From positions 35,282 through 99,281 of the forward strand of contig CACZZB010000001.1 of NCBI GenBank assembly GCA_902785555.1: a stretch of DNA of 64,000 nt, read 5' to 3'. The position numbers were made by a program, and so were the translations under genes. The notes under the pieces are model-generated. The model had not been told where the DNA came from, searched no databases, and saw only the letters and a list, made by a program, of their open reading frames with translations. Below are positions 475 through 59,815 of the stretch, piece after piece. Position 1 is the first letter of the stretch; every line of letters begins with the position of its first letter. Source of the DNA: an uncultured Ruminococcus sp. Lineage in GTDB: Bacteria; Bacillota; Clostridia; Oscillospirales; Acutalibacteraceae.

Positions 475-498
475 CACTAACATTAATAAATATTAAAA

Positions 499-530
499 GG
501 CGGCTAAACCTTTATTTCGGTTTAGCCGCC
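499..530. terminator. bidirectional intrinsic terminator between convergent genes
   Basis: ggcggctaaacc (499-510) pairs perfectly with ggtttagccgcc (519-530). A-run upstream and T-run downstream. Confidence 0.75.
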
Positions 531-542
531 TTATTTTTTAGT

Positions 543-2054
543 TTAACCCGTAACACTTGAACGGATTATTTTTCTTGATGCTGTCTTTTCAAATTCCTTA
601 TCTCTGATAACGAGATTTACAATATGTTTTGCTGCCGGAAATGTATCGTTGACTTCATCAATTTTAGCCTGTATCTCGGCTTTTATGTCATTGCTTTCAT
701 AATCGGGATTCGGGAATACCTCCGCTGTGATAAGTCCCTGTTTGTCATAAACGACTATCTCTTTTATCGGAGCAAAATATGCAAACTGATTTTCTATCTC
801 CTCGGGAGATACGTTTTCTCCGTTTGAAAGGATTATCAGATTCTTCTTTCTTCCCGTGATAAATACATAACCGTCTTTCTGATATCCTAAATCGCCTGTC
901 ATCAGCCATCCGTCAGGCGTAAGGGATTTAGCCGTTTCTTCGGGATTCTTATAATATCCCTGCATTACAGACGGACTCTTTACCCATATCTCTCCGTCAA
1001 CTATCCTGACTTCACAGCGTGGAACTATCCTGCCGACAGATTCGGGTTCGGGACAGTCTACAACACCCGTGCATATTCTCGGAGAACATTCCGTCATGCC
1101 ATAGCCCTGAGAAACTTTTATCCCATACTCTATGTATCCCTCGATTATCTTCGGGCTGAGATATGCACCGCCTGTATATATAACTCTGAAATCTTCACCG
1201 AAAATTTCCCTGCCTATGGCTATCTTATCGGGATTCGTTTCCGCAAGCTGATTCATTCTCGTCAGAATAGACCCTGCTATCATCGGTACAAATGTAACTT
1301 CCGTCGGTCTGTATATCTTCAGATTTTTGACTATTCTCATAAGGGAATCATTGACACAGATAGTTCTTCCGTACCAAAGACTGCATAGGATATCACAGGT
1401 AAAGCAGAATACATGATGTATCGGGAGAACAGTCATTCTCGTGAAACCGTGGTATCCCTCGTCAGGCTCACAGGTAGCATTATCTATCAGATTGCCGTTT
1501 GACAGCATTACACCCTTGCTCAGACCCGTTGTACCCGATGTAAAAAGAATTGCCGCAAGGTCACTTTCGGACGAACTCTTTGAAGGCTCTTTATCTTTAT
1601 ATTCACTGATAATATCTTCAAGATAAAGCATATCATCAGTTTTCTTATGAACATGAACATAATACTTCACTTTCGGACAAAGGCTTTTGAAGGTATCCAA
1701 GTCCCCCTCATGCTTATCATCCAAAAACAGCACTTCGCTGTCGGAACGGTTTATTTCATCAGCTATTTTCTCGGCACTGTTGGCACAATCAAGCGGAACC
1801 GATACATTTCCGCTCGCCTGTATACCGAACCATGCAACAAGATATTCATAACTTGTCAGTCCGACTACTGCCGCATGAACTCTTTCCGAAAATTTATCTT
1901 CAAGCCATGCACCTATCTTGTCACAGTCGTCTTTAAACTGCTGATAGCTGTGTTCAACGAAACTCTTTTTCTTGTATTCACGAACCCAGACTTCATCACC
2001 GAACTTTTCTGCTGCATTATATACAAGGTCTTTTAAAGTTTTTACTTCCATCAT
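543..2054 (-). CDS. AMP-dependent synthetase/ligase, fatty-acyl-AMP/CoA ligase type
   Basis: 503 aa with AMP-binding core motif FTSGTTGLSKGVMLS, plus GYGMTE and a late GDLGY..DGY.F..GRKK motif. Its start overlaps the ACP stop by 4 nt. Confidence 0.85.
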   Translation of the reverse strand: MMEVKTLKDLVYNAAEKFGDEVWVREYKKKSFVEHSYQQFKDDCDKIGAWLEDKFSERVHAAVVGLTSYEYLVAWFGIQASGNVSVPLDCANSAEKIADEINRSDSEVLFLDDKHEGDLDTFKSLCPKVKYYVHVHKKTDDMLYLEDIISEYKDKEPSKSSSESDLAAILFTSGTTGLSKGVMLSNGNLIDNATCEPDEGYHGFTRMTVLPIHHVFCFTCDILCSLWYGRTICVNDSLMRIVKNLKIYRPTEVTFVPMIAGSILTRMNQLAETNPDKIAIGREIFGEDFRVIYTGGAYLSPKIIEGYIEYGIKVSQGYGMTECSPRICTGVVDCPEPESVGRIVPRCEVRIVDGEIWVKSPSVMQGYYKNPEETAKSLTPDGWLMTGDLGYQKDGYVFITGRKKNLIILSNGENVSPEEIENQFAYFAPIKEIVVYDKQGLITAEVFPNPDYESNDIKAEIQAKIDEVNDTFPAAKHIVNLVIRDKEFEKTASRKIIRSSVTG

Positions 2055-2275
2055 GCTTGATCCTCTAAATAGTCAACCAATTCACCGACTGTCTTTTTCT
2101 TGCCTGCAACAGATTCATCAACTTCAATGTCAAACTCATCTTCACAGTCACCGAGCATACACATAAAGTCGTATGAATTGAAGCCCAAATCCTCGGCAAA
2201 TCTTGAATCAAGCTCAATGCTGTCGGGGTCTACATCAACATAATTTACTATCAAATTTTTCAATTTATCAAACAT
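2051..2275 (-). CDS. acyl carrier protein (phosphopantetheine-binding)
   Basis: 74 aa, acidic. DLGFNSYD motif carries the Ser attachment site. RBS aaaggaga lies 9 nt upstream of the ATG. Confidence 0.8.
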   Translation of the reverse strand: MFDKLKNLIVNYVDVDPDSIELDSRFAEDLGFNSYDFMCMLGDCEDEFDIEVDESVAGKKKTVGELVDYLEDQA

Positions 2276-2300
2276 AGCGAAAAATCTCCTTTATTATTTA

Positions 2301-2440
2301 GAGTGGAGTGTTGAGAATAAAGAGTGGAGTTATTATATATCCGCTTTATTCTCAAAATCCACTTTTTTATTTTAATTGGTGTTCTATGAAGAATTTGAAG
2401 TCAAATCTGCTCCACTCTCAATTCTTCACTCTCCACACTT
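2301..2440 (-). repeat. heptad-built hairpin element, family A copy 1 (intra-operon, starts just after the stop of the C-domain gene)
   Basis: Left hairpin: gtggagtgttgagaataaag (2303-2322) pairs with ctttattctcaaaatccac (2345-2363). Right hairpin: gaagaatt (2390-2397) pairs with aattcttc (2420-2427). Block 2409-2439 is 28/31 identical to 59785-59815. Confidence 0.7.
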
Positions 2441-2442
2441 AT

Positions 2443-3846
2443 TTATACCATGTCCATGATTTCCTTAATAGTCTTGTCGGGGTTCTCGATACTTCTGAAA
2501 AGGACTCTGCCGACAAAGTAATAAAGGAATTCAATTTCTTCGGGAGTAGCAGATTCTTTCTGATAGCCGAAATAGAAATTCAGTCCGCCGTCACCCGGTC
2601 TGTGCATAGCCGTGATATAGAAAGGCTGGGGCTGTCTTCCGCTGCTGTACCAACGGCTCTTGAACGGAATATCTTTAAGATACGGTATAAGGCTCTTTCT
2701 TGTAGCCGGCTGATAAGTAAAGCTGACACTGAAATACGTTGCACCGGGGTCGGCATTGTATCTTATTCTTTCTTCATAGTAATATTTCATTGTTGAATAG
2801 TCTGCATGGAGAAAAACATCCTGCTGTTCCTTGTTGATTATTTCCATTGATTCAAGTACCGTTGCACTCGGGTCTATGATAGTTCTCAAAGGCAGACAGT
2901 GCATTCTTACGCCACCGCACTTTTTATTGAGGAGTGTCGAACGTCTGCTGATAAAATCCCTGATAGTAACATCATTTTCATTATTGAATTTTGCAAGTAC
3001 AGTTCTGATAGCGTGAAGTATAACAACGCTTGCCGGAATATTATATTTCTCAGCAAAATCGAGTATCTTGTCCGTTGACTCAACACTGAGACCGTATGTA
3101 ACAGTTGCACCGGCACTGTCTTTTGTCGGGAGCATACTCCATCTGAGTTCGGGATTACCTTTTGCTTTACGCATCTGTATAAGTCTGCCGGGACCTGTGA
3201 AGTCCGTATATATCGGCTCGGGCTGGGCAAGCTTTTTATGCCAGAATTCCTCATCACGCTTTGCCTTTTTGGTTTCCGGATATTCAAGATCTTTCTTGAC
3301 GGATTCGATATAAGATGTCAGCGGAGCGGGTTCGGGGAGTCCGTACAGCAGATGACAGTACAGTTCCAGAACGTCTTTCGTAAATGTAACTACCGAATAT
3401 GAATCTGCACAAGCATGATGTACATTCAGATAATATCCGTTATAGCCGTCGGGCATTGAAACTATGACTATTCTCGACAATTCACCGCCGTATGTATCAA
3501 ACGGCTGTGAAGTCCATCTTTCAAGGATAGAATGAGCTTTTTCTTCTGTAAGTGCCGAAAAATCGTAGTACTCAAAATACTGATTCTTATACGGTACAAC
3601 ATATTGCCAAAGCTGATTCGTTTCAGGTTCACGCCATATTCTCATACGCATTGACTCACATCTCTCAACGGCACGGTTAAGTGCTTCTCTCAGTACCGAT
3701 ACATTGAATTCTGTCTTGAAGAATTGTCCTGTTCCGATATTAACCACTTCATCCGAAGGGCTGAACATCAATGTATACATATGAACCATCTGTGCGGGGG
3801 TCAACGGATAGCATTCATGCTTTATTCCGCCTATAATTTTTTCCAT
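2443..3846 (-). CDS. stand-alone NRPS-type condensation (C) domain protein
   Basis: 467 aa with the catalytic HHxxxD motif present as HHACADSYS. Size and layout fit a single C domain. First gene of the operon, with RBS aaaggagg. Confidence 0.8.
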   Translation of the reverse strand: MEKIIGGIKHECYPLTPAQMVHMYTLMFSPSDEVVNIGTGQFFKTEFNVSVLREALNRAVERCESMRMRIWREPETNQLWQYVVPYKNQYFEYYDFSALTEEKAHSILERWTSQPFDTYGGELSRIVIVSMPDGYNGYYLNVHHACADSYSVVTFTKDVLELYCHLLYGLPEPAPLTSYIESVKKDLEYPETKKAKRDEEFWHKKLAQPEPIYTDFTGPGRLIQMRKAKGNPELRWSMLPTKDSAGATVTYGLSVESTDKILDFAEKYNIPASVVILHAIRTVLAKFNNENDVTIRDFISRRSTLLNKKCGGVRMHCLPLRTIIDPSATVLESMEIINKEQQDVFLHADYSTMKYYYEERIRYNADPGATYFSVSFTYQPATRKSLIPYLKDIPFKSRWYSSGRQPQPFYITAMHRPGDGGLNFYFGYQKESATPEEIEFLYYFVGRVLFRSIENPDKTIKEIMDMV

Positions 3847-3903
3847 AAATAATAGTACCTCCTTTAAACTATAAAAAATATTTTGAATAAAATCGCTAAT
3901 ATT

Positions 3904-3932
3904 ATTCTAACATCTTACCCATTATTTGTCAA
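3904..3932 (-). promoter_or_regulatory. sigma-A type promoter for the C-domain/ACP/ligase operon
   Basis: On the minus strand: TTGACA (3932-3927), 17 nt spacer, TAGAAT (3909-3904). Confidence 0.6.
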
Positions 3933-4001: not shown

Positions 4002-5675
4002 TTATTTTCCCGTTTTCTTTTTTCTCATAAGCAAAAACGCACTAATAAGGCTTACTCCTGTCAATGACACTATTAAAGAGATAAGATTCATATTATCGCC
4101 CGTGTTAAAGCTTGAAGAACTGTTCGGCAAATAAGATACACTACTGTTATTATTGTTCGTACTTGCATTTGAAGAAACCGAACCCATAACGTTAACCGTA
4201 ATATCTATCTCACCGTCTTCAAATTTTAGTGTCAGGGTATTTCTTCCGTCATCAAGTCTTGAAAGAAGGTCTGACGAGATTTTTACAGTGCCGTTTGAGA
4301 TTGAGAGCTTCTGACCGTCACTTTCAGCAAAAAGTCTGTTATTTCTGCGTATTGCAACCGTTTCCGATTTTGAATTTGTAACTACTTCTATGCCCGAAAG
4401 AGAATTTCTCTGCCATGTAAAAAAAGTTTTTTCTGCCGAAATTTCCTCTTTTACCTCATTTCTGCTGTCAGTGACATTTACATTTATATCTATCTGTCCG
4501 TCATCAAATTTGAGTGTAAGAATATTTTCTCCGACATCAAGAGTTCTGAGAATTTTCGCCGATATGCCGACTTTGCCGAGCAGTATATATAAATTCAGCT
4601 TTTCTTTTTCGGCGATAAGCTCATTATTTTTATACAAGCTGACCGTTTTTGAATTTGAATTCGTTTTCACAGATATACCAATAAGGTCTTTTTTATCCCA
4701 TTCAAAGACAGTATTATCAGCCGTTATATTTTTCGGTGCATTTTTTTCATCAGTGACATTCACTCTTATATCAAGCTGTCCGTCATCAAATTTGAGTGTC
4801 AGGAGATTTTCCCCGACATCAAGAGTTCTGAGAATTTTCGCCGATATTCCGACTTTGCCTAATAATATATTCAGGTCAAGGCTTTCACCCTGAGCGATAA
4901 GCTCATCGTTTTTATATAAACCGACATTTTTTGAACGTGAATCTGTACCGACCGATATACCAAGAATATTGCTCTTGTCCCATTCAAAATAAGTATTCTT
5001 TGCAGTTATATCCTTTTGGGGATGTTTATTGTCCGTGACATTTACATTGATATCGACCACACCGTCATCAAGCACAAGCTGTAATCTGTTTTGTCCGTTG
5101 TCAAGTTTTTTCAAAACAGCAGGCGATATCATAACACTGCCCAATAAAATACTTGCATCAAGCAATTTTTCCGAAATTATCTCATCGCCTTTCAAAACGG
5201 TAACTTTCTTCGATTTGGAATCCGTATCAACGGTTATACCCAATACACTGCTTCTGTCCCATTCAAAATCCGTTTTTTTTGCTGTGACTTCTCTGTAATT
5301 GTCGGTTATATTTATTGTAATATCAAATTTACTGTCTTTTAATATGACAGTGAAATCATGCTCTCCGTCAGAGAATTTGCTGAGTATTTCCGCACCTATT
5401 GATATCTTTCCGTCTTCAATTGAAAGATGTTTGCTCAAAAGGCTTGTTGCAGCTACGATATTGTTCCTTGTTAATGTAACCGTATTTGATACGGAATCCG
5501 TATCAATACTTATTCCCTCATTACTGCTTCTGTCCCATTCAAAATACATCTTCTCTATTGAAGTTTCGCTTGCAATATCGGATATAACCTCAAAAGCATT
5601 CACAGGAACAGCCGACCATGCACCGCATGAAACAGCCGTTGCCATTATCAAACATAAAATTTTTCTTGATTTCAT
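4002..5675 (-). CDS. secreted cell-surface protein with five tandem ~95-aa repeats and a C-terminal membrane/sorting-like anchor
   Basis: N-terminal signal peptide MKSRKILCLIMATAVSCGAWSAVPVNA. Five repeats begin with FEWD(R/K) and end with D(I/V).(I/V)NVTD. The C-terminus has ..FNTGD.., a hydrophobic stretch, then RKKKTGK. Confidence 0.7.
   Translation of the reverse strand: MKSRKILCLIMATAVSCGAWSAVPVNAFEVISDIASETSIEKMYFEWDRSSNEGISIDTDSVSNTVTLTRNNIVAATSLLSKHLSIEDGKISIGAEILSKFSDGEHDFTVILKDSKFDITINITDNYREVTAKKTDFEWDRSSVLGITVDTDSKSKKVTVLKGDEIISEKLLDASILLGSVMISPAVLKKLDNGQNRLQLVLDDGVVDINVNVTDNKHPQKDITAKNTYFEWDKSNILGISVGTDSRSKNVGLYKNDELIAQGESLDLNILLGKVGISAKILRTLDVGENLLTLKFDDGQLDIRVNVTDEKNAPKNITADNTVFEWDKKDLIGISVKTNSNSKTVSLYKNNELIAEKEKLNLYILLGKVGISAKILRTLDVGENILTLKFDDGQIDINVNVTDSRNEVKEEISAEKTFFTWQRNSLSGIEVVTNSKSETVAIRRNNRLFAESDGQKLSISNGTVKISSDLLSRLDDGRNTLTLKFEDGEIDITVNVMGSVSSNASTNNNNSSVSYLPNSSSSFNTGDNMNLISLIVSLTGVSLISAFLLMRKKKTGK
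4161..5555 (-). repeat. in-frame tandem coding repeats (5 units, ~288 bp period)
   Basis: Units 3 and 4 are nearly identical at the DNA level. For example, ~4480-4590 matches ~4770-4880 (ctgtccgtcatcaaatttgagtgt...gacatcaagagttctgagaattttcgccgatat). Confidence 0.8.
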
Positions 5676-5696
5676 TCTTAAATACCTCCAACAATA

Positions 5697-5957
5697 TCAA
5701 TCATCTATCGCACCGACAGCTTTCAGGCGTGTGACTATATTATTTACATCAAGTTCGATTTGACCGTTTTCGTCATCATATATTTTTTTCATTTCGGATA
5801 TTATCTGTTCTTTTGTAATATCTTTTTTCAAATAATCCAATATAACGCCCAAAGTTTCATTTCCTTTTATTACTCCCGAAAAATTTGCATTTCCCATTGG
5901 AACAACAACAACTTCGCTGCCTGTCTTGTGTATAAGAAAATTTTTATTGAGTTTCAT
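5697..5957 (-). CDS. PqqD-family (RiPP recognition element-like) small protein
   Basis: Starting at the internal ATG (RBS aagggg 8 nt upstream) gives MKLNKNFLIHKTGSEVVVVP...GNETLGVILDYL...EQIISEM..IYD...DV..IV..L..VGAI. This matches the PqqD-like pattern I recognise. The longer track ORF (to 5993) has no RBS. Confidence 0.55.
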   Translation of the reverse strand: MKLNKNFLIHKTGSEVVVVPMGNANFSGVIKGNETLGVILDYLKKDITKEQIISEMKKIYDDENGQIELDVNNIVTRLKAVGAIDD

Positions 5958-6026
5958 GCAGCTCACCCCTTTTCCAAAAATATTATACAACATTTTTTCG
6001 ATTTATACAACAGTAAATTTTTAAAG

Positions 6027-6150: not shown

Positions 6151-7212
6151 TTGAATATTATTTTTTTAGCTTTTGTCATTGTATTTTTTATCGGAGCAGA
6201 ATTTCATTTCAAAGATATCAACAATGAATATATATCACACAGACAAACTCAATGTATCAACGGATTTTTTGTATTGATAGTCTTTATTCAGCATTTCAAA
6301 GGCTATGTAAAACTTGGTGATTATGACATGGTATACAATTACATAGCAAATTGGAGCGGTCAGCTTCTTGTAGTGCCATTCCTGTTCTTTTCGGGATACG
6401 GCATAATGCTTTCCATCACAAAAAAAGGAAAACCTTATGTCGATACAATTCTCACAAAGCGTTTCCCGAAAATATGGATTCACTTCGCACTTGCCATTGT
6501 ACTTTTCATTATAACAAACCTCATTATGAGAAAGACCTTTCCTCCTTTGAAGCTGATACTCACTTTCCTCGGCTGGGACAGTATCGGAAACAGCAATTGG
6601 TATATCTTTGACACTCTTATACTTTATATACTTACATTTCTTAGTTTCAGATTCGTCGGAAAAAATCGCCGTTTGGGACTGTTTATAATGGCTTTGCTGA
6701 CTTCCGCTTTTGTTATAGCAATGTCACGATTCAAACCCGGCTATTGGTACAATACCGTAATAGCTTATCTTTTGGGAATGATATTTGCAACGGTAGAATC
6801 TTCATTCAAAAAAATAATGTCCTCAGAAATACTCAATTATATCATTTTCATAACTTTCGGTATCATTATAATATCACTTGCCGTAAATGACAAGGCAAAA
6901 CTGACTTCCTATGAAGTCTTTGTTACTGCCGGAACAGTCCTCCTTTTAGCCCTGTCACTAAAAGTGAGATTCGGCAATCCTATACTTTCATTTCTCGGAA
7001 AATATGTATTCGAGATATACATTCTCCAAAGGATACCAATGATACTTTTGCAGTCTTATATCCCCCAAAAGTACATTTATTTTGCAGTATGTTTCGCCTC
7101 AACTCTCGTTCTTTCATTCCTTTTTCGCTTTATCGAAAAGCCTTTCGACAAGCTCATAGACGGACAGCTTTTCCGCAAAAAACAGCCGTCACTTCCCGAA
7201 AAGAAATGTTGA
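6151..7212 (+). CDS. acyltransferase family 3 integral membrane protein (O-acyltransferase)
   Basis: 353 aa with ~10 hydrophobic segments. The N-terminal region ..R....ING.R..L...V...H.. is typical of acyltransferase_3. TTG start with RBS aggaga. Confidence 0.65.
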   Translation: MNIIFLAFVIVFFIGAEFHFKDINNEYISHRQTQCINGFFVLIVFIQHFKGYVKLGDYDMVYNYIANWSGQLLVVPFLFFSGYGIMLSITKKGKPYVDTILTKRFPKIWIHFALAIVLFIITNLIMRKTFPPLKLILTFLGWDSIGNSNWYIFDTLILYILTFLSFRFVGKNRRLGLFIMALLTSAFVIAMSRFKPGYWYNTVIAYLLGMIFATVESSFKKIMSSEILNYIIFITFGIIIISLAVNDKAKLTSYEVFVTAGTVLLLALSLKVRFGNPILSFLGKYVFEIYILQRIPMILLQSYIPQKYIYFAVCFASTLVLSFLFRFIEKPFDKLIDGQLFRKKQPSLPEKKC

Positions 7213-7267
7213 ATTATCAGCCGAGTCATGTTATAATACTCACAAAAAAATCAAAGGAGTTTTTTAT

Positions 7268-7588
7268 ATGAAACTTGCAGTATCTTTCGATATGGACAGC
7301 GACAATATAGCACCCGATTTTGACTCGACCATGTTTTTTAAAATGTATGATATTGACGAGGGTGATGTCATTTGCAGTGAGATAATGAGTACAATGGGGA
7401 AATTCGGCGCCGAAAATCTCTCCGAACTTCTCATTCTTCTGAAAGCCGATGCCGTTTTATGCGGTGATATATCGGATGACGCTGCACAAATGCTTGACGA
7501 GGAAGGCATTTCTTTTTACAGCGGTTTTTCGGGTGATTCCGATGAAACAGTTGAAGCATTTATCAACGGAGTTTTTCACTTTGAATAA
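7268..7588 (+). CDS. NifB/NifX-like (dinitrogenase FeMo-cofactor-binding fold) small protein
   Basis: 106 aa starting MKLAVSFD.., with central ..ADAVLCGDIS..A...L.E.GI.. as in the NifX/NifB-C family. Sits next to a DtxR-type repressor, a common arrangement. Confidence 0.55.
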   Translation: MKLAVSFDMDSDNIAPDFDSTMFFKMYDIDEGDVICSEIMSTMGKFGAENLSELLILLKADAVLCGDISDDAAQMLDEEGISFYSGFSGDSDETVEAFINGVFHFE

Positions 7589-7671
7589 TAAAAAGTTCAG
7601 TTACAACTTGATTTTTTACAGCCGATATGTTAATATTAAATAAAATACTTTATAAGATGGTGATTTAATTT

Positions 7672-8052
7672 ATGAATAAAGAAAAAAATGTAGAAAAAAC
7701 CATAGAAGATTATCTTGAAGCAATGCTCATGATAAAAGAAGAAAAGGGAATGGTGCGTTCAATAGATGTTGCATATCTTTTAGGTGTAACAAAACCAAGT
7801 GTTACTTATACCACAAAACGTCTAAAAGAACGTGGATATATCACAATGGATGAAGATAATCTTATAACCCTGACAGATTCGGGAATGGAGATAGCTGCCC
7901 GTACATATCACCGCCATAAGACTCTCACGAATTTTTTCATCGGTCTCGGTGTTGACAAGAATATCGCCAAAGAAGATGCCTGTCTTATCGAACACGATCT
8001 CAGTCCCGAAACCTTTGATGCACTTTGCAGACATATCGAAAGCATGAACTGA
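7672..8052 (+). CDS. DtxR/MntR-family metal-dependent transcriptional repressor
   Basis: 126 aa. N-terminal IEDYLEAMLMI..E.G.VRSIDVA..LGV.KPSV....KRL.E.GYI and the following HRH...FF..LGV segment are hallmark DtxR-family sequences. Confidence 0.85.
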   Translation: MNKEKNVEKTIEDYLEAMLMIKEEKGMVRSIDVAYLLGVTKPSVTYTTKRLKERGYITMDEDNLITLTDSGMEIAARTYHRHKTLTNFFIGLGVDKNIAKEDACLIEHDLSPETFDALCRHIESMN

Positions 8053-8062
8053 AAAAATCAAA

Positions 8063-8095
8063 ATCCCGATATCCTTATCTTCAGGATATCGGGAT
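8063..8095. terminator. bidirectional intrinsic terminator
   Basis: atcccgatatcct (8063-8075) pairs perfectly with aggatatcgggat (8083-8095). Lies between convergent genes. Confidence 0.75.
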
Positions 8096-8102
8096 ATTTC
8101 TG

Positions 8103-8591
8103 TCAGCTCTCACTCTTTCTGTAAAGTATGAACTTTCTTGCAAAAAAGTTCCACATATACACAAGAACTATCGCTATAACTTTTCCTATTATATAATAAT
8201 TATCCACCGAAACCAATGAACCGAATACAGCATTTTTTACCAAAAATCCCGTTGTATTGAATACATTCACTTCACAAAACGGTGCCATGATAAGCTCGGT
8301 CAGTCCCAATCCTATTATGCCTATAACCGCAAATCCGATAAAATCCACAGAACGATTTTTCACCTTTGCTTTCGAGAATACCCAAAATGTCGATACTATG
8401 TAATTTACGGTCAGTCCTGCAATGAATCCCATGACTGCTGCCCACGATTCGGGCATTTGAAACATCAACTTGCAAAGTATCAGCACTGCCATGTCAACTA
8501 CCGAGGCGATTCCGCCTACAAATATGCTCCTGAAAAACTGTATTGCTGTATTGCTCGTTTCCTCAATGAAAATTTTATGAAACCAACCCAT
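8103..8591 (-). CDS. GtrA-family membrane protein
   Basis: 162 aa with 4 TM segments. N-terminal ..QFFRSIFVGGIASVVDMAVL.. and C-terminal W.F..RKF.. are typical of GtrA-like proteins. Confidence 0.7.
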   Translation of the reverse strand: MGWFHKIFIEETSNTAIQFFRSIFVGGIASVVDMAVLILCKLMFQMPESWAAVMGFIAGLTVNYIVSTFWVFSKAKVKNRSVDFIGFAVIGIIGLGLTELIMAPFCEVNVFNTTGFLVKNAVFGSLVSVDNYYIIGKVIAIVLVYMWNFFARKFILYRKSES

Positions 8592-8646
8592 AATATCCCC
8601 CCATCGTCTTTATGTAAAAATATATTATCACAGTTTTTCGTTTAAA

Positions 8647-9117
8647 TCAAGGACTATTTATTATTGATTGTATTTTTTCCGATGTACGCTTATATAAATC
8701 ATAAAAAACAACTATATTTGTAATTATCTGCTTGCACATTATCTTCTGACTGCCCGCAAGTATGAACTGCTGACATGAATATACATCATTATTATCATCC
8801 ATTCCCGAATTTATGAATAAAAACCTGTCGTTCACTTTATTTATTTCCTCAAGGATATCATGACGCTTTTCTTCCGTTATCCCCCTTGCAATATATGCAC
8901 ATATCTCTGCACTGAACATTTCATCAATTATAAGAGTTATCGTTTCACTAAAAGAACCGTTCTCAGGGAAATTTATCGTGTATATCATCTGATCTTTATT
9001 TTTTATTGTCCTATAAGAAATATTCATCATCCCAAACGCTTCTTCAAGATAACATGATAGTTTACTGTCCAATTTTTGCCACTCCTTAATCATTCTCATG
9101 TTTTTAAATATTAACAT
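8647..9117 (-). CDS. hypothetical cytoplasmic protein
   Basis: 156-aa ORF in a coding-like context. I recognise no motif with confidence, and the start codon is uncertain. Confidence 0.45.
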   Translation of the reverse strand: MLIFKNMRMIKEWQKLDSKLSCYLEEAFGMMNISYRTIKNKDQMIYTINFPENGSFSETITLIIDEMFSAEICAYIARGITEEKRHDILEEINKVNDRFLFINSGMDDNNDVYSCQQFILAGSQKIMCKQIITNIVVFYDLYKRTSEKIQSIINSP

Positions 9118-9233
9118 ACTTTTTTATAAAAATATATCTCTTTTGAGAATAATTAAATAAAAATTATATTTTTGTTGATATTATATAAATTTTTTGTTAA
9201 TATTTTGAACAAACAAAACATAAAAAATTTTTA

Positions 9234-9262
9234 TTGACTTTTATATTTTTTTGTAGTACAAT
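9234..9262 (+). promoter_or_regulatory. sigma-A promoter for tRNA-Thr
   Basis: TTGACT (9234-9239), 17 nt spacer, TACAAT (9257-9262), ~17 nt upstream of the tRNA 5' end. Confidence 0.65.
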
Positions 9263-9278
9263 ATATCCGTTGACAATT

Positions 9279-9351
9279 GCTGATATAGCTCAGTTGGTAG
9301 AGCAGCTCATTCGTAATGAGCAGGTCGTGGGTTCGAGTCCCACTATCAGCT
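9279..9351 (+). tRNA. tRNA-Thr (anticodon CGT)
   Basis: Hand-folded cloverleaf. Acceptor gctgata/tatcagc, D stem gctc/gagc, anticodon stem gctca/tgagc with loop ttCGTaa, T stem gtggg/cccac with ttcgagt loop. 73 nt; CCA is not encoded. Confidence 0.93.
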
Positions 9352-9363
9352 TGATATCAAAAA

Positions 9364-9392
9364 AGTGACTTTTGAAAGTTTCAAGAGTCACT
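9364..9392 (+). terminator. intrinsic terminator after the tRNA
   Basis: agtgacttttgaa (9364-9376) pairs with ttcaagagtcact (9380-9392), followed by taattttttt. Confidence 0.75.
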
Positions 9393-9506
9393 TAATTTTT
9401 TTATATGAATATATTTTTTTCGGTACTTGTATTTTCAGTGCGATTAAAGTATAATTAACTGTGTATAAATAATCTGAATTCTAAGAAAAAGGTCGTGGAT
9501 TTAAAA

Positions 9507-11339
9507 ATGAAAAAATTTACTGCATTTATTGCAGCTGCTATACTGGCTCTTTCAATCTCCTTGCCTGTATTTGCAGAGCCTGTCGAGGACAGCATATCCC
9601 AATCATCTTCCGTACAGTCTTCCGGTATATCCTCCGGTGAAAGCCTTCCCGAACTTTCGGGATATACTCCGAAGATATACTATACAAGCTATCCTGTACC
9701 GGAAGCCGAAATGTATATTGACCTGCCAAATGATATGTATGTCCTTACAAAGAATATAGACGAAAATTCCCCTGTCCTCAAAGCCTGCAAGATAACAAAA
9801 GCTCAGCTTCTCAAATCCTTTGAACAAACGGGAAATTATATCAAAGCAAGCTCGAAGGATTTCACTTATGACATAACCGTCAACATACTTAAAAACAAAA
9901 ATACCAAAACCATTGATAACTTAGCCACACTTGATGATGAAGAAATAGAAAGTATAGTCAATAATACAATGAGACAATCAATATATACAAGCTGGTCTAA
10001 AAATGTCTATAACAATTCCATGTATCTCTCTTTCCCAATGCAGTTCAATGACGGCAATACAAGCGTTGCAGGTATTCAGCAATACACCATCATCAAAGGA
10101 ACAAGAATAGTTATAACATTCCAATCCTACACAGGTGAAATAAATGATACTTTCAATGAAATAATATCATCCGTTATGGAAAGCATCGTTTTTGACGGCA
10201 TCAATCCCAATACCGAAAGCTCCGAGCCTGTCGAAAACAAGTCTGCATTGGCAGACCTCGATATACGATACATCTATCTTCTTCTGGCATCTCTGATAGC
10301 ACTTATATTCCTCACACTGATTATCACAACGGCTATGAGATACAAAAAATCCCATAAACCACTCTCGTCTGAACCTGTTATCGACAATCCTCCTCAAGAC
10401 GAAGATAAAAAAGAAGAAATACAAGAAGAAACAAAGATACCGGAAAAAGACGAGATTCCTTCCGAAATTACAGAAACAAAAGACGAAGAACCCCCCGTAG
10501 CCGATACCCAAACAGAAGAAAATAACGAACAAAAATCAGAACCAACTCAAACCGAAGAAACTATTATTCCTCCTGCCGAGGAAAATACCGAAGCTGTTCC
10601 AAATACCAATGATGACTCTGAAAATATTGCAGATAACTCAAATGAAGAAGATGACCATTTGCCCGTCGTTCAAAATCAGCTTGAATTGGTCGAAATAGCT
10701 TTCAGGATAATCCCCGCACTTACACATGAAGATGAAGACCTGACCGAAATATGGAACTTTATATACAAAAAATTCAATGACATAGAGTTCTTCTCGGCTT
10801 ATTCAAACCAAAATCAAGCCAACGCCAATGCCTTTTACAAGATAAACTCTCAGAGCGATATCTCTGCTCCTCAAAAAAACGAGCAAACCATTGACGACGA
10901 AATACGCAATGAAACTCTTGAAAACGTTGTCGGTGACAATACACCCGAAACCATACAATTTGATAATACACATTCTCAGGAAACTCACGAAGAAGACCTC
11001 AATGAACTTATCTATGCAACTCCTCCAACGTATCCCGAAATCGAACCCGAAACAGATATACAAACAGAGCAAAATACCGAAAAACAACATATACAGGAAT
11101 CTGATGATGACTCCAAAATAAAGCCTATGCAGACTTCCGAAATGAAACTGGGTACTCCTCCGAAACGTCCGAAAAATGAAATATACAAAGCCAAGGAAGA
11201 AAGCGTTAAAAATCAAAATATCAGCCTTGAAATTTCAAGAGAAGATGACGGAAGCATAAAAATAGGTGCTAACAACGGTCAAAAATCCCTTGATGTTGAA
11301 ATCGAAGAACATAAAAAAAATAAATCTGAACATCAATAA
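9507..11339 (+). CDS. membrane-anchored protein with a secreted N-terminal domain and a long acidic low-complexity cytoplasmic tail
   Basis: Signal peptide MKKFTAFIAAAILALSISLPVFA and a central TM segment (IYLLLASLIALIFLTLIITTAM). The C-terminal half is rich in E/D/T/Q/N/P. The start (9495 GTG or 9507 ATG) is uncertain. Confidence 0.55.
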   Translation: MKKFTAFIAAAILALSISLPVFAEPVEDSISQSSSVQSSGISSGESLPELSGYTPKIYYTSYPVPEAEMYIDLPNDMYVLTKNIDENSPVLKACKITKAQLLKSFEQTGNYIKASSKDFTYDITVNILKNKNTKTIDNLATLDDEEIESIVNNTMRQSIYTSWSKNVYNNSMYLSFPMQFNDGNTSVAGIQQYTIIKGTRIVITFQSYTGEINDTFNEIISSVMESIVFDGINPNTESSEPVENKSALADLDIRYIYLLLASLIALIFLTLIITTAMRYKKSHKPLSSEPVIDNPPQDEDKKEEIQEETKIPEKDEIPSEITETKDEEPPVADTQTEENNEQKSEPTQTEETIIPPAEENTEAVPNTNDDSENIADNSNEEDDHLPVVQNQLELVEIAFRIIPALTHEDEDLTEIWNFIYKKFNDIEFFSAYSNQNQANANAFYKINSQSDISAPQKNEQTIDDEIRNETLENVVGDNTPETIQFDNTHSQETHEEDLNELIYATPPTYPEIEPETDIQTEQNTEKQHIQESDDDSKIKPMQTSEMKLGTPPKRPKNEIYKAKEESVKNQNISLEISREDDGSIKIGANNGQKSLDVEIEEHKKNKSEHQ

Positions 11340-11357
11340 AACTGGAGTGAATTTTCA

Positions 11358-12017
11358 ATGAACAATAACGACAAAAAAGATTTTGTGTTTGAACGTGATA
11401 CCGGTATCGAATTTCAGCACGCCAAACCATCCGAACAGCCTTTCAAGCTCAGCAAAAACCAATTTACGGTCATTCCTAAACTTGAAAGCGTAATGGCAGA
11501 AGAATATAATAAAAAATTCGAGGAAATGCGTAAGGCTATGCCAAAAAACCTCGCTTATGCCGGCAAATTCGGTAAAGAAAGCATCATTCCTCCGGGTGTT
11601 TCGGCAAAAAAACCTCAACCCAAAATACAGGACACACCCGAGATAAAGAATGAGCCTGCTTCCAAAAATACTTTTACGCCTGCTGTCGAAGAAGCTGTAA
11701 CACCTCCTCCGCCCAAAAATATCACCAACACGCCCGTTCAGCCCAAAAATGAGCCCGAGCCAAAACCTGCTCCCGTACAAACAAAAGAACCCGAAAAACC
11801 GCCTGTACAAGATGACCCTATCGTATTCTATACAGGATATGAATCCGAAAAAGACCCATTCAACGACGATACATATAAAAATCAGGAATTTGTTATAGAA
11901 AACGGCAACAAACCTAAAAATTCCTCCTTTGCGGACAAGATAAAACAAACTTTCCATAAGTTATTTTCAAATTCCGCCGAGGAAGATGAATTTGATAATT
12001 ACAATGATGATGAATAA
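11358..12017 (+). CDS. hypothetical Pro/Lys/Glu-rich protein
   Basis: 219 aa with RBS ggag 10 nt upstream. The central PKP/PEP-rich segment is low complexity. Preferred over the antisense 200-aa ORF, which is Phe/Arg-rich and has no RBS. Confidence 0.5.
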   Translation: MNNNDKKDFVFERDTGIEFQHAKPSEQPFKLSKNQFTVIPKLESVMAEEYNKKFEEMRKAMPKNLAYAGKFGKESIIPPGVSAKKPQPKIQDTPEIKNEPASKNTFTPAVEEAVTPPPPKNITNTPVQPKNEPEPKPAPVQTKEPEKPPVQDDPIVFYTGYESEKDPFNDDTYKNQEFVIENGNKPKNSSFADKIKQTFHKLFSNSAEEDEFDNYNDDE

Positions 12018-12035
12018 AAAAAGGCGGTGATATAT

Positions 12036-13295
12036 ATGAGTAAAATAATCATATCAAATGTAAGGATCATAGATCCCGAAAACAATACCGATAAGACAGG
12101 AAATATTTTTATAAAAGACGGTGTTTTTTCCGAGCCGTTTGATGATAACGATGTATTTATCGACGGAACCGGTCTTTGTGCCGCTCCCGGACTTGTCGAT
12201 CTTCATGTTCATCTGCGTGACCCCGGACAAACCTACAAGGAAGATATCATTACAGGCTGCAAAAGTGCCGCTGCCGGTGGTGTAACAAGTCTTCTTGCAA
12301 TGCCCAACACCATTCCTGCCGTAGATACCCCCGAAACAGTTGAATATATCCTTGACAAAGCTAAAAATGCAGACGCTCACGTATACGTTGTCGGTGCAAT
12401 AACGCACGACCTCAAAAGCAAAGTTCCCACTGATATTGATGCTCTCAGAAATGCGGGTATCTCTGCACTTTCCGATGACGGAAGACCTGTCGAAAATACC
12501 GCTTTCATGGCTGCCGCAATGAAAAAAGCCTATGAACTTGGTATCCCCGTCACCGCTCACTGCGAAGACCCTTATCTTGCAGGCGGCAAAGTCAATGAAG
12601 GCAGAATATCCGAAATGCTCGGTGTCAAAGGTATGCCTGCGGCTGCCGAAGATACAGGCACTGCACGTGAGATTGCTCTTGCAGCCGCCTATGGTCTTCC
12701 GATACATATTTGTCATGTCAGCACCGCAACATCCGCCGATATGATAAGAGATGCAAAAAAACGTGGTGTCAAAGTCACTGCCGAGACCGCTCCGCATTAT
12801 ATTATGCTGACCGAAAAGGAACTCGAAAAACGTGATGCCGATTACAGGATGAATCCTCCCCTGCGTACCGAAAAAGACCGTCTTGCCATGATAGAGGCTC
12901 TCTGTGACGGCACTATCGATGCAATAGCTACCGACCATGCACCTCATTCCCCCGACGAAAAATCCGATTTCGTCAATGCTCCCAACGGCTCAATAGGAAT
13001 GGAAACTTCATTTTCCGCTTCTTATACCGTACTTGTGAAAAGCGGCAGAATGACTCTATCTCAGCTTATAAATAAAATGTCCTGCACACCTGCAAAGATA
13101 CTTCATATAAATGCAGGCTCTCTTTCAATCGGTAAACCTGCCGACCTTATGCTGTTTGACCCCACTGAAACATGGACTGTCGACCCCGACAAATTCCACG
13201 GAAAATCCAAAAATTCTCCGTTCAAGGGTCTTACACTTACTTCCAAGGTAAAACTTACCGTTTGCGGCGGCAAAATAGTTTTCAATGAAATTTAA
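12036..13295 (+). CDS. pyrC: dihydroorotase
   Basis: Metal-binding DLHVHLRDPG motif, ...TDHAPH... and typical length. ATG at 12036 with RBS aaggcgg is preferred over the upstream GTG. Confidence 0.9.
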   Translation: MSKIIISNVRIIDPENNTDKTGNIFIKDGVFSEPFDDNDVFIDGTGLCAAPGLVDLHVHLRDPGQTYKEDIITGCKSAAAGGVTSLLAMPNTIPAVDTPETVEYILDKAKNADAHVYVVGAITHDLKSKVPTDIDALRNAGISALSDDGRPVENTAFMAAAMKKAYELGIPVTAHCEDPYLAGGKVNEGRISEMLGVKGMPAAAEDTGTAREIALAAAYGLPIHICHVSTATSADMIRDAKKRGVKVTAETAPHYIMLTEKELEKRDADYRMNPPLRTEKDRLAMIEALCDGTIDAIATDHAPHSPDEKSDFVNAPNGSIGMETSFSASYTVLVKSGRMTLSQLINKMSCTPAKILHINAGSLSIGKPADLMLFDPTETWTVDPDKFHGKSKNSPFKGLTLTSKVKLTVCGGKIVFNEI

Positions 13296-13315
13296 AATAA
13301 AAGGAGTAGATATCT

Positions 13316-14251
13316 ATGTCATTTGACAGACTTATCAAAAAAATCGCTGAAACCCAGAATCCCACAGTTGCAGGTCTTGACCCCAAACTCGATTTTATCC
13401 CCGACCATATCAAAGAAAATGCTTATATGGTATACGGAAAAACCCTTGAGGGTGCTGCCGAAGCTCTCTTTGAGTTCAACAAGGGTCTTATCGATGCACT
13501 GTGCGATATAGTTCCCGCTGTCAAGCCCCAAGCTGCTTATTACGAAATGTACGGCTGGCACGGTGTACACGCTCTCCGGAAAACTATCGAATATGCTAAA
13601 AGCAAGGGTATGTTCGTTATCACTGATGGCAAAAGAAATGACATCGGCACTACCATGACCGCCTATGCAAAAGCTCATCTCGGCATTACAGATATCGAAG
13701 GCGAATCCGTTGAGGCTTTCGGCTCTGATGCACTTACCGTAAACGCTTATCTCGGTACTGACGGTGTTAAACCTGTTATTGACGTATGCAAGGAATACGA
13801 TAAAGGTCTTTTCGTTCTCGTTAAGACCTCCAACCCATCCTCGGGCGAATTACAGGACAGGATACTTGATGACGGTCTTACAGTTTACAGAACCATGGGC
13901 AATATGTGCGAAACATGGGGCAATGACCTCATGGGCGAATACGGCTACTCAGGCGTAGGTGCTGTTGTAGGTGCTACTTACCCGAAACAGCTCGGTGAAC
14001 TCAGAAAAGCCCTCTCCCATACTTTCTTCCTTGTACCCGGATACGGTGCACAGGGCGGCGGAGCGGCTGATGTTGCTCCTGCATTTGATGAAAACGGTCT
14101 CGGTGCTGTGATAAATTCCTCCCGTGGTATCATGTGTGCTTGGAAAAAAGAACAGAACATTGATACAAAAGACTATGCACTTGCCGCAAGAAATGAAGCT
14201 GTAAGAATGCGTGACGAAATAATCTCATATATCGGAAAAATAAAACTCTGA
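13316..14251 (+). CDS. pyrF: orotidine 5'-phosphate decarboxylase (long, type 2 form)
   Basis: 311 aa with ..GLDP...IP.., ..KPQ.AYYE.. and ..DGKRNDIG.T.. motifs. Adjacent to pyrC. Confidence 0.88.
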   Translation: MSFDRLIKKIAETQNPTVAGLDPKLDFIPDHIKENAYMVYGKTLEGAAEALFEFNKGLIDALCDIVPAVKPQAAYYEMYGWHGVHALRKTIEYAKSKGMFVITDGKRNDIGTTMTAYAKAHLGITDIEGESVEAFGSDALTVNAYLGTDGVKPVIDVCKEYDKGLFVLVKTSNPSSGELQDRILDDGLTVYRTMGNMCETWGNDLMGEYGYSGVGAVVGATYPKQLGELRKALSHTFFLVPGYGAQGGGAADVAPAFDENGLGAVINSSRGIMCAWKKEQNIDTKDYALAARNEAVRMRDEIISYIGKIKL

Positions 14252-14260
14252 ATCAAAAAA

Positions 14261-14290
14261 GACCGCTGTATCTTCAAAAATACAGCGGTC
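14261..14290. terminator. bidirectional intrinsic terminator
   Basis: gaccgctgta (14261-14270) pairs with tacagcggtc (14281-14290), flanked by an A-run and a T-run. Confidence 0.8.
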
Positions 14291-14297
14291 TTATTTT

Positions 14298-15056
14298 TTA
14301 TCCTATAAACATCTGTGTCCAATAATTTCCGTCTGCAACATATCCCATACCTATCTCTTTGAAAGAAGCGTTAAGTATATTTGCACGGTGTCCCTCGGAA
14401 TTCATCCACGCATTTACCACTATTTCAGGTGTCTGCTGTCCCATGGCAATATTCTCACCCGCTGTACGATAGCTTATCCCGAACTGTTTCATCATATCAA
14501 ACGGACTTCCGTAAGTAGGCGAATTATGGCTGAAATATTTTTTATCTTTCATATCCTGTGACTTCATCCTTGCCACTTCCGACAGCTTATTATTCAATTT
14601 CAAAGCCGAAAGACCGTTTTTTACACGAATATCATTCACCAATTCAACGACCCTCTGTTCATACTCCGAAACTGTATGTTCTGTCCCAGAATTTGACGGT
14701 ACAGTTATCTCCGGCATTTCAATATTATTGCCGTTTTCGGCAGGTACTTCCTCATTGCCGCAATCCGTACACTGTTCATTATCTTCATTCGCAACAGGTA
14801 CTGCATTATTTTCTTTATTGCAGTCTGTGCACTGTTCATTATCAGGCAATATTCCCAGCTTTCCGATAAGCTCCTTTATATCCTCGTATGAACAATTCCC
14901 TGTCAGACACTTGATGTCATTCGCTGTGCAGTTTCCTCCGCTGCACACAAAAGTCTGTAAATCATACGGACATACTGCATTTGCAGATATTGCTCCGCCC
15001 GACAAGCCAAGCATCAATCCCATTATCAATGCTGATGTTTTAAATATGTTTTTCAT
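14298..15056 (-). CDS. secreted CAP/SCP (YkwD-like) domain protein
   Basis: Signal peptide, then a Cys-rich linker with duplicated NEQCTDC. C-terminal CAP domain: ..VN..R...GL..L.....L...A...S.DM....YF.H.SP.. and ...W..S.GH..N.L...F...G. Confidence 0.8.
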   Translation of the reverse strand: MKNIFKTSALIMGLMLGLSGGAISANAVCPYDLQTFVCSGGNCTANDIKCLTGNCSYEDIKELIGKLGILPDNEQCTDCNKENNAVPVANEDNEQCTDCGNEEVPAENGNNIEMPEITVPSNSGTEHTVSEYEQRVVELVNDIRVKNGLSALKLNNKLSEVARMKSQDMKDKKYFSHNSPTYGSPFDMMKQFGISYRTAGENIAMGQQTPEIVVNAWMNSEGHRANILNASFKEIGMGYVADGNYWTQMFIG

Positions 15057-59680: not shown

Positions 59681-59815
59681 AGTGTGAAGTTTGGAGAGTT
59701 GAGCAGTTTACAACTCAATTTTCTTCCGAACTTCACGATGTAAAGAAATAAGCGGATGTTGAGAATGAAGCGTAAAGTAAAACAGCTCCACTCTCCATTC
59801 TCAACTCTCCACACT
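59681..59815 (-). repeat. heptad-built hairpin element, family A copy 2 (starts at the stop codon of the upstream minus-strand ORF)
   Basis: Block gctccactctccattctcaactctccacact (59785-59815) is 28/31 identical to 2409-2439. Sub-hairpins: gtgaagtt (59683-59690) with aacttcac (59729-59736), and gttgagaatg (59758-59767) with cattctcaac (59796-59805). Confidence 0.7.

Follow-up and report, generated by a model that had tools for sequence, protein, structure and literature searches.

The locus examined here raises the question of what a bacterium can make with a condensation (C) protein, an acyl carrier protein (ACP) and an AMP-binding ligase encoded side by side as three separate polypeptides. 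The three genes, all on the minus strand and running in that order from 3846 down to 543, lie at the beginning of the window, by which is meant the whole stretch of 64,000 nucleotides that was analysed (contig CACZZB010000001.1, positions 35,282 to 99,281, assembly GCA_902785555.1), from an uncultured Ruminococcus sp. A first-pass annotation of this DNA had read them as a minimal operon resembling non-ribosomal peptide synthetases (NRPSs), in which a fatty acid would be activated, loaded on the ACP and transferred by the C domain to a free amine or alcohol, and had named a phylogeny of the C domain as a check. The results presented below indicate that the genes very probably form a cassette of three genes for the synthesis of a fatty-acid amide (FAA), of the 'NRPS-like' type known from gut Clostridia; judged from the sequences, it would belong to that family at some distance from the characterised clusters, with none of which it would be orthologous.

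In the gut-Clostridia FAA systems, as outlined in the passages of PMC13310621 that cite Chang et al. 2021, the A/ligase, the ACP and the C protein are all free polypeptides: the first charges the second with a fatty acid, and the third joins the acyl group to a diffusible amine, thereby releasing the product. For OaaC, the free-standing condensation enzyme by which Coprococcus eutactus makes oleoyl aminovaleric acid, a structure has been solved, PDB 12KH (PMC13310621). This structure was matched by the C protein of the window with an E-value of 1.8e-86 across residues 9–466, the next-best solved C domain reaching 1e-11. A C protein was counted as FAA-type when it was free-standing, about 300–520 aa long and similar to OaaC over its full length, and the 467-aa protein is of this kind. 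Its motif HHACADSYS occupies residues 143–151, with the catalytic His144 and Asp148 in HHACADS, and conforms to the FAA-family pattern (D/H)HxxxD, in which the next residue is mostly S or A, not G (PMC13310621); the second His, the Asp and the Ser after it do not vary among the nine C sequences compared (the window and eight orthologues).

The relationship extends to all three proteins. A protein of Coprococcus genomes that carries the peptides of OaaC (P0012) is encoded in a locus with the same order, C–ACP–ligase, and each member of that locus aligns colinearly and over its full length with its counterpart in the window, with identities of 33% for the C protein, 44% for the ACP and 38% for the ligase. 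The predicted phosphopantetheine-bearing Ser of the ACP is located within DLGFNSYDF, and the FNS motif is unchanged in six orthologues; the NCBIfam ACP models match this carrier with 56–63 bits, under their equivalog cut-offs.

The search of the whole sequence library with the C protein returned many stand-alone homologues (about 450–480 aa) as well as domains embedded in megasynthases, and two trees were built, one with FastTree (88 rows) and one with IQ-TREE in quick mode under a site-heterogeneous model (42 rows). Both trees split the stand-alone from the NRPS-embedded C domains at 100% support, and both placed the window protein, together with its relatives of 62% and 51% identity, inside a clade of 14 rows (99% support) to which the OaaC-like protein also belongs, so the phylogeny proposed in the first-pass annotation favours the FAA assignment. 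It is because of the full-length match to OaaC, the shared gene order, the homology of the ACP and the ligase, the motif and the placement in the clade of OaaC that the cassette is assigned to the FAA family.

The loci of the 14-row clade vary in content. One has the order hydrolase–C–ACP–phosphopantetheinyl transferase (PPTase)–ligase, followed by an Orn/Lys/Arg decarboxylase gene, and resembles the six-gene ebf/ecf clusters of PMC10871352; another has the order TetR–C–ACP–ligase. In a locus with a 39%-identical relative (L031:478-6659), whose protein cluster includes Clostridium sp., a PPTase gene lies between the ACP and ligase genes, and a 716-aa Orn/Lys/Arg decarboxylase is encoded directly downstream, which makes a built-in supply of a diamine acceptor plausible there. 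A distant stand-alone C protein, P0081, has neither an ACP nor a ligase alongside; therefore, not all stand-alone C proteins are of the FAA type.

The ligase contains the motifs TSGTTGLSKG and GYGMTE, as the first-pass annotation had stated, and both are conserved among the orthologues. In NCBIfam it is matched best by models of acyl-CoA ligases, headed by the long-chain-fatty-acid--CoA ligase PRK06187 (E 1e-62), and reaches the cut-off of none of them; the 17 solved structures related to it at E<=1e-20 comprise luciferases and CoA ligases of the 4-coumarate, fatty-acyl, malonyl and succinylbenzoate kinds, with no entry named fatty-acyl-AMP ligase (FAAL) among them. The name 'fatty-acyl-AMP ligase', chosen in the first-pass annotation, is therefore kept as a label for the expected function, whereas the sequence itself appears closest to long-chain acyl-CoA synthetases. 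An ordinary acyl-CoA synthetase for fatty-acid scavenging, standing next to the ACP and C genes without meaning, would show just such a profile, in which no FAAL-specific model or structure ranks high, and the DegV-family (fatty-acid-binding) gene that adjoins the triad in one subgroup of orthologues could be taken in the same sense. Such an incidental enzyme is nevertheless extremely improbable, because the stop codon of the ACP gene and the start codon of the ligase gene overlap by 4 nt, the genes follow the order C–ACP–ligase in Coprococcus as in every one of the 13 full loci, and the homology of the ligase to the OaaA-type partner spans the whole protein; moreover, acyl-CoA was no donor in the OaaC assays. 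By analogy with OaaA, the ligase of the FAA cassette would load the ACP. With the amino-acid adenylation model TIGR01733 this protein reaches 113 bits, the cut-off being 317, and no paralogue of the ligase was found in the same genome at E<=1e-10. The DegV gene mentioned above belongs to a subgroup about 72% identical to the window locus, where it is convergent and lies directly after the ligase gene (L009:5296-6282, L010:3369-4226, L012:9225-9842 and L013:5538-6392); its adjacency possibly reflects a functional tie to fatty-acid supply, or a coincidence.

The features of the locus are listed in Table 1.

Table 1. Coordinates of the cassette and of the adjoining elements in the window
Feature	Position	Strand	Evidence or remark
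Stand-alone condensation protein, 467 aa	2443..3846	-	PF00668, E 1.5e-39, residues 11-463
Free-standing acyl carrier protein, 74 aa	2051..2275	-	PF00550, E 2.1e-10
Fatty-acid-activating AMP-binding ligase, 503 aa, OaaA counterpart	543..2054	-	PF00501, E 4.6e-58, and PF23562 (AMP-binding_C_3)
Sigma-70-type promoter, TTGACA-17-TAGAAT with extended -10 TG	3904..3932	-	Predicted, 11/12 matches
Intergenic hairpin element, two adjacent imperfect stem-loops	2276..2442	-	167-nt spacer between C and ACP genes
Bidirectional terminator-like hairpin, 14-bp stem, 8 GC pairs	497..532	both	3' of ligase gene
Surface protein, five CBM_X2-like repeats, weak LPXTG-anchor-like tail	4002-5993	-	CBM_X2 hits (Pfam)

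The reading of the genes in the first-pass annotation stands: three co-directional genes of the sizes it gave, a single C domain with an intact HHxxxD motif, a carrier with the Ser motif GFNSYD and the TTGACA-17-TAGAAT promoter were all recovered, and the Pfam and NCBIfam searches of the unit found neither a thioesterase nor a second carrier nor an A domain of the amino-acid type. A canonical modular NRPS was rejected as a description of the unit, which consists of three separate single-domain proteins. The predicted promoter is among the three best-scoring matches of a motif scan of 7.5 kb and would, by its sequence, drive the cassette from about 58 nt 5' of the start of the C gene, inside a 155-nt intergenic region; it is directly preceded by a hairpin with a T-run, recognised by reading the sequence, that closes the upstream surface-protein gene. 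At the other end, the terminator-like hairpin separates the ligase gene from a convergent O-acetylhomoserine sulfhydrylase gene.

The spacer between the C and ACP genes is predicted to fold with an energy of −41.9 kcal/mol (z −3.9). An intrinsic terminator was considered here and rejected, as neither stem has a T-run behind it, and a comparison of this element and the leader with Rfam gave no match to a riboswitch or other known RNA. The hairpin element is not conserved among orthologous loci: the spacer in the relatives measures 12 to 137 nt, and a similar second hairpin occurs only in locus L005. Partial weak copies are present on contigs C21, C9, C6 and C44 and in the window at about 59775-59815, and the element looks like a small insertion-prone hairpin repeat. 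The length of the gap leaves room for a second, internal promoter; the motif scan found none scoring at least 9/12 in it.

Proteins at least 60% identical to the C protein of the window fall into more than 100 clusters (90% identity), and the related loci are titled as metagenome-assembled genomes (MAGs) of rumen or gut Ruminococcus, Ruminococcaceae and Oscillospiraceae. The three genes are intact and in the same order in every one of the 13 loci with enough sequence, and their flanks vary; since the triad is constant while the flanks change, the cassette consists of exactly three genes. The neighbours named in the first-pass annotation are present as described: a 98-aa PqqD-like gene directly upstream of the surface-protein gene, the surface-protein gene itself and a divergent Acyl_transf_3 gene. 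They accompany the triad in only two of the 13 loci, the closest ones (L001 and L006), the flanks in the other related loci being housekeeping genes, and these three neighbours were rejected as members of the cassette.

The pairwise ratios of nonsynonymous to synonymous substitution rates (dN/dS) are 0.02–0.13 over all three genes, 0.02–0.10 for the C gene and 0.03–0.08 for the ligase gene, values that are only rough, dS being mostly saturated. The catalytic motifs are invariant, and the ratios point to strong purifying selection on the cassette.

Among the 61 genomes of the genus that were sampled, a stand-alone C gene of the FAA type, of whatever lineage, was found in 43, which include 21 of the 27 high-quality genomes, and an orthologue at least 60% identical to the window protein was counted in 27, a figure that takes in partial matches on fragmented assemblies. 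Two to three stand-alone FAA-type C genes, 30–38% identical to that of the window, were observed in each of G005, G013, G014, G044, G058-G060, G063 and G066; the genus thus holds multiple divergent FAA lineages, several of which may occur in one genome. Some orthologues look damaged: at L008:2151-3635 the C gene is in two frames, at L016:2820-4029 it is cut to 227 residues abutting a ligase fragment, and the orthologue on contig C88 of G044 has a single in-frame TAA. These lesions may represent true lineage decay or errors in MAG assembly. A search of the available literature for FAA clusters of the rumen found no report.

The chemistry proposed in the first-pass annotation agrees with that demonstrated biochemically for the Oaa-type family, and, carried over from the characterised relatives, it would proceed here as follows. 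With ATP, the ligase would turn a free medium- or long-chain fatty acid into an acyl-adenylate and then hand the acyl chain to the ACP, on the thiol of its phosphopantetheine arm. Priming of this dedicated carrier would be carried out in trans by one or other of the genome's two Sfp-type PPTases. The acyl-S-ACP would then enter the donor site of the C protein, where a diffusing small amine would attack the thioester with the assistance of His144, and an N-acyl amide would leave with regeneration of the holo-ACP. As the C reaction itself would release the amide, no thioesterase would be needed.

Of the two PPTase genes, one is located on contig C16 and the other beside an NRPS on contig C41, and the remaining PP-binding matches in the genome belong only to that NRPS and to a separate ACP gene on contig C8, which is probably the housekeeping one. 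The C41 locus (about 7200-15000; L018, L020) encodes a multi-domain NRPS, with a 1980-aa open frame, one C domain and two PP-binding domains, followed by a terminal-reductase-like NAD_binding_4 protein, the Sfp-type PPTase and a HAD hydrolase; orthologues of this NRPS occur in 15 of the 61 genus genomes, independently of the FAA triad. Its presence beside a PPTase gene, together with the reported position of FAA C domains as sister to starter C (CStarter) domains, their nearest clade (PMC13310621), would suit a triad that acts in trans as a lipoinitiation module feeding the C41 NRPS, the C protein being a detached starter domain. That role is very improbable because of the pattern of presence and absence across the genus, in which 19 genomes have a triad orthologue without the NRPS, seven have the NRPS without the triad and only eight have both; some of the triad-only genomes are 93–99% complete. 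In addition, the triad and the NRPS lie on different contigs, and free amines are the acceptors of the OaaC-type enzymes (PMC13310621).

As to the amine that the putative FAA synthase would use, the genome contains two decarboxylases of the Orn/Lys/Arg type, and none for aromatic amino acids was found in it above the cut-off; this set hints, if weakly, that the cell itself could produce acceptors of the polyamine type. After the same activation and carrier steps, the acyl group could also end up on an acceptor that is not an amine or does not diffuse, such as an alcohol (giving an ester or a wax-like lipid), a membrane lipid head group or a cell-envelope component. C-domain relatives can also make esters, the acceptor is unreadable from the sequence, the clade of the window protein is only 31–39% identical to the other subclades of the 14-row clade, and the first residue of the motif is His here and Asp in OaaC. 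Such an acceptor is nonetheless unlikely, since small free amines are used by every characterised FAA member (PMC13310621; PMC10871352) and the envelope-related neighbours, the surface protein and Acyl_transf_3, are kept in so few loci.

Several points weigh against the assignment of the cassette to FAA synthesis. The C protein shares no more than about 33% of its residues with a characterised member, and the class of the amine acceptor is extrapolated over this distance; the ester-forming capacity of C-domain relatives bears on the same step. No gene for amine supply, export or regulation was found linked to the cassette at the locus. The trees contain no labelled CStarter or MIBiG subtypes and speak for kinship to the OaaC-like protein, not for a position in the C superfamily, and the saturation of dS affects the estimate of selection.

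The fatty acid amides that gut Clostridia make are mimics of host signalling lipids with activity at G-protein-coupled receptors, and work on the FAA family has dealt with species of the human gut. Judged from this locus and the many related ones, the FAA cassette is common in Ruminococcus-type bacteria of the rumen. This suggests that ruminants harbour a stock of N-acyl amides still to be explored, and for expression work it supplies compact units of only three genes. The type of pathway is already known, and the cassette brings no new mechanism or architecture. It can be suggested tentatively, as a possibility that is on balance doubtful, that the rumen Ruminococcus/Oscillospiraceae clade joins fatty acids to an amine novel for the family and makes a new N-acyl amide; if this were true, the compound could act on receptors of the ruminant host or on other rumen microbes.

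Comparison with the known systems places the cassette as follows. It shares the use of a fatty acyl donor, assumed here from the relatives, with the starter (lipoinitiation) C domains of lipopeptide NRPSs; however, those domains are embedded in megasynthases, usually take acyl-CoA as the donor and acylate a carrier-bound amino acid, whereas the C protein of the window stands alone. The pathway of Eubacterium rectale (Agathobacter rectalis) is reportedly, from the work of Chang and colleagues, of the same family of split C/A/T clusters. Lauroyl tryptamine is a product reported from this species (PMC13716806), which is consistent with the mention of E. rectale in the first-pass annotation. With 33% identity to OaaC, strict orthology of the window locus to any characterised cluster seems unlikely.

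With the ebf/ecf clusters of Enterocloster bolteae and E. clostridioformis, the cassette has in common, by their description, a core of stand-alone C, T and A proteins for fatty acid amides. Those clusters produce N-acyl putrescines and N-acyl lysines; they are six genes long and encode, besides the core, a PPTase, a hydrolase and an SCP2-like lipid-transfer protein (PMC10871352). The PPTase and SCP2-like genes, which lie within the cluster in ebf/ecf, are located elsewhere in the genome of the Ruminococcus sp., and a hydrolase gene is unlinked to the cassette.

The Oaa system of Coprococcus eutactus (OaaC/OaaACP/OaaA; 12KH; Singh, Grant and Gulick 2026; PMC13310621) differs from the cassette in the first residue of the motif, as noted above, in its host, which is a human-gut member of the Lachnospiraceae and not of the rumen Ruminococcus/Oscillospiraceae lineage, and in having a TetR-like gene adjacent, unlike the window cassette. 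Both consist of three free-standing proteins, homologous pair by pair over their full length and encoded in the order C–ACP–ligase, with no thioesterase and no acceptor carrier, and both have a C protein with the xHxxxDS motif that belongs to the same 14-row clade.

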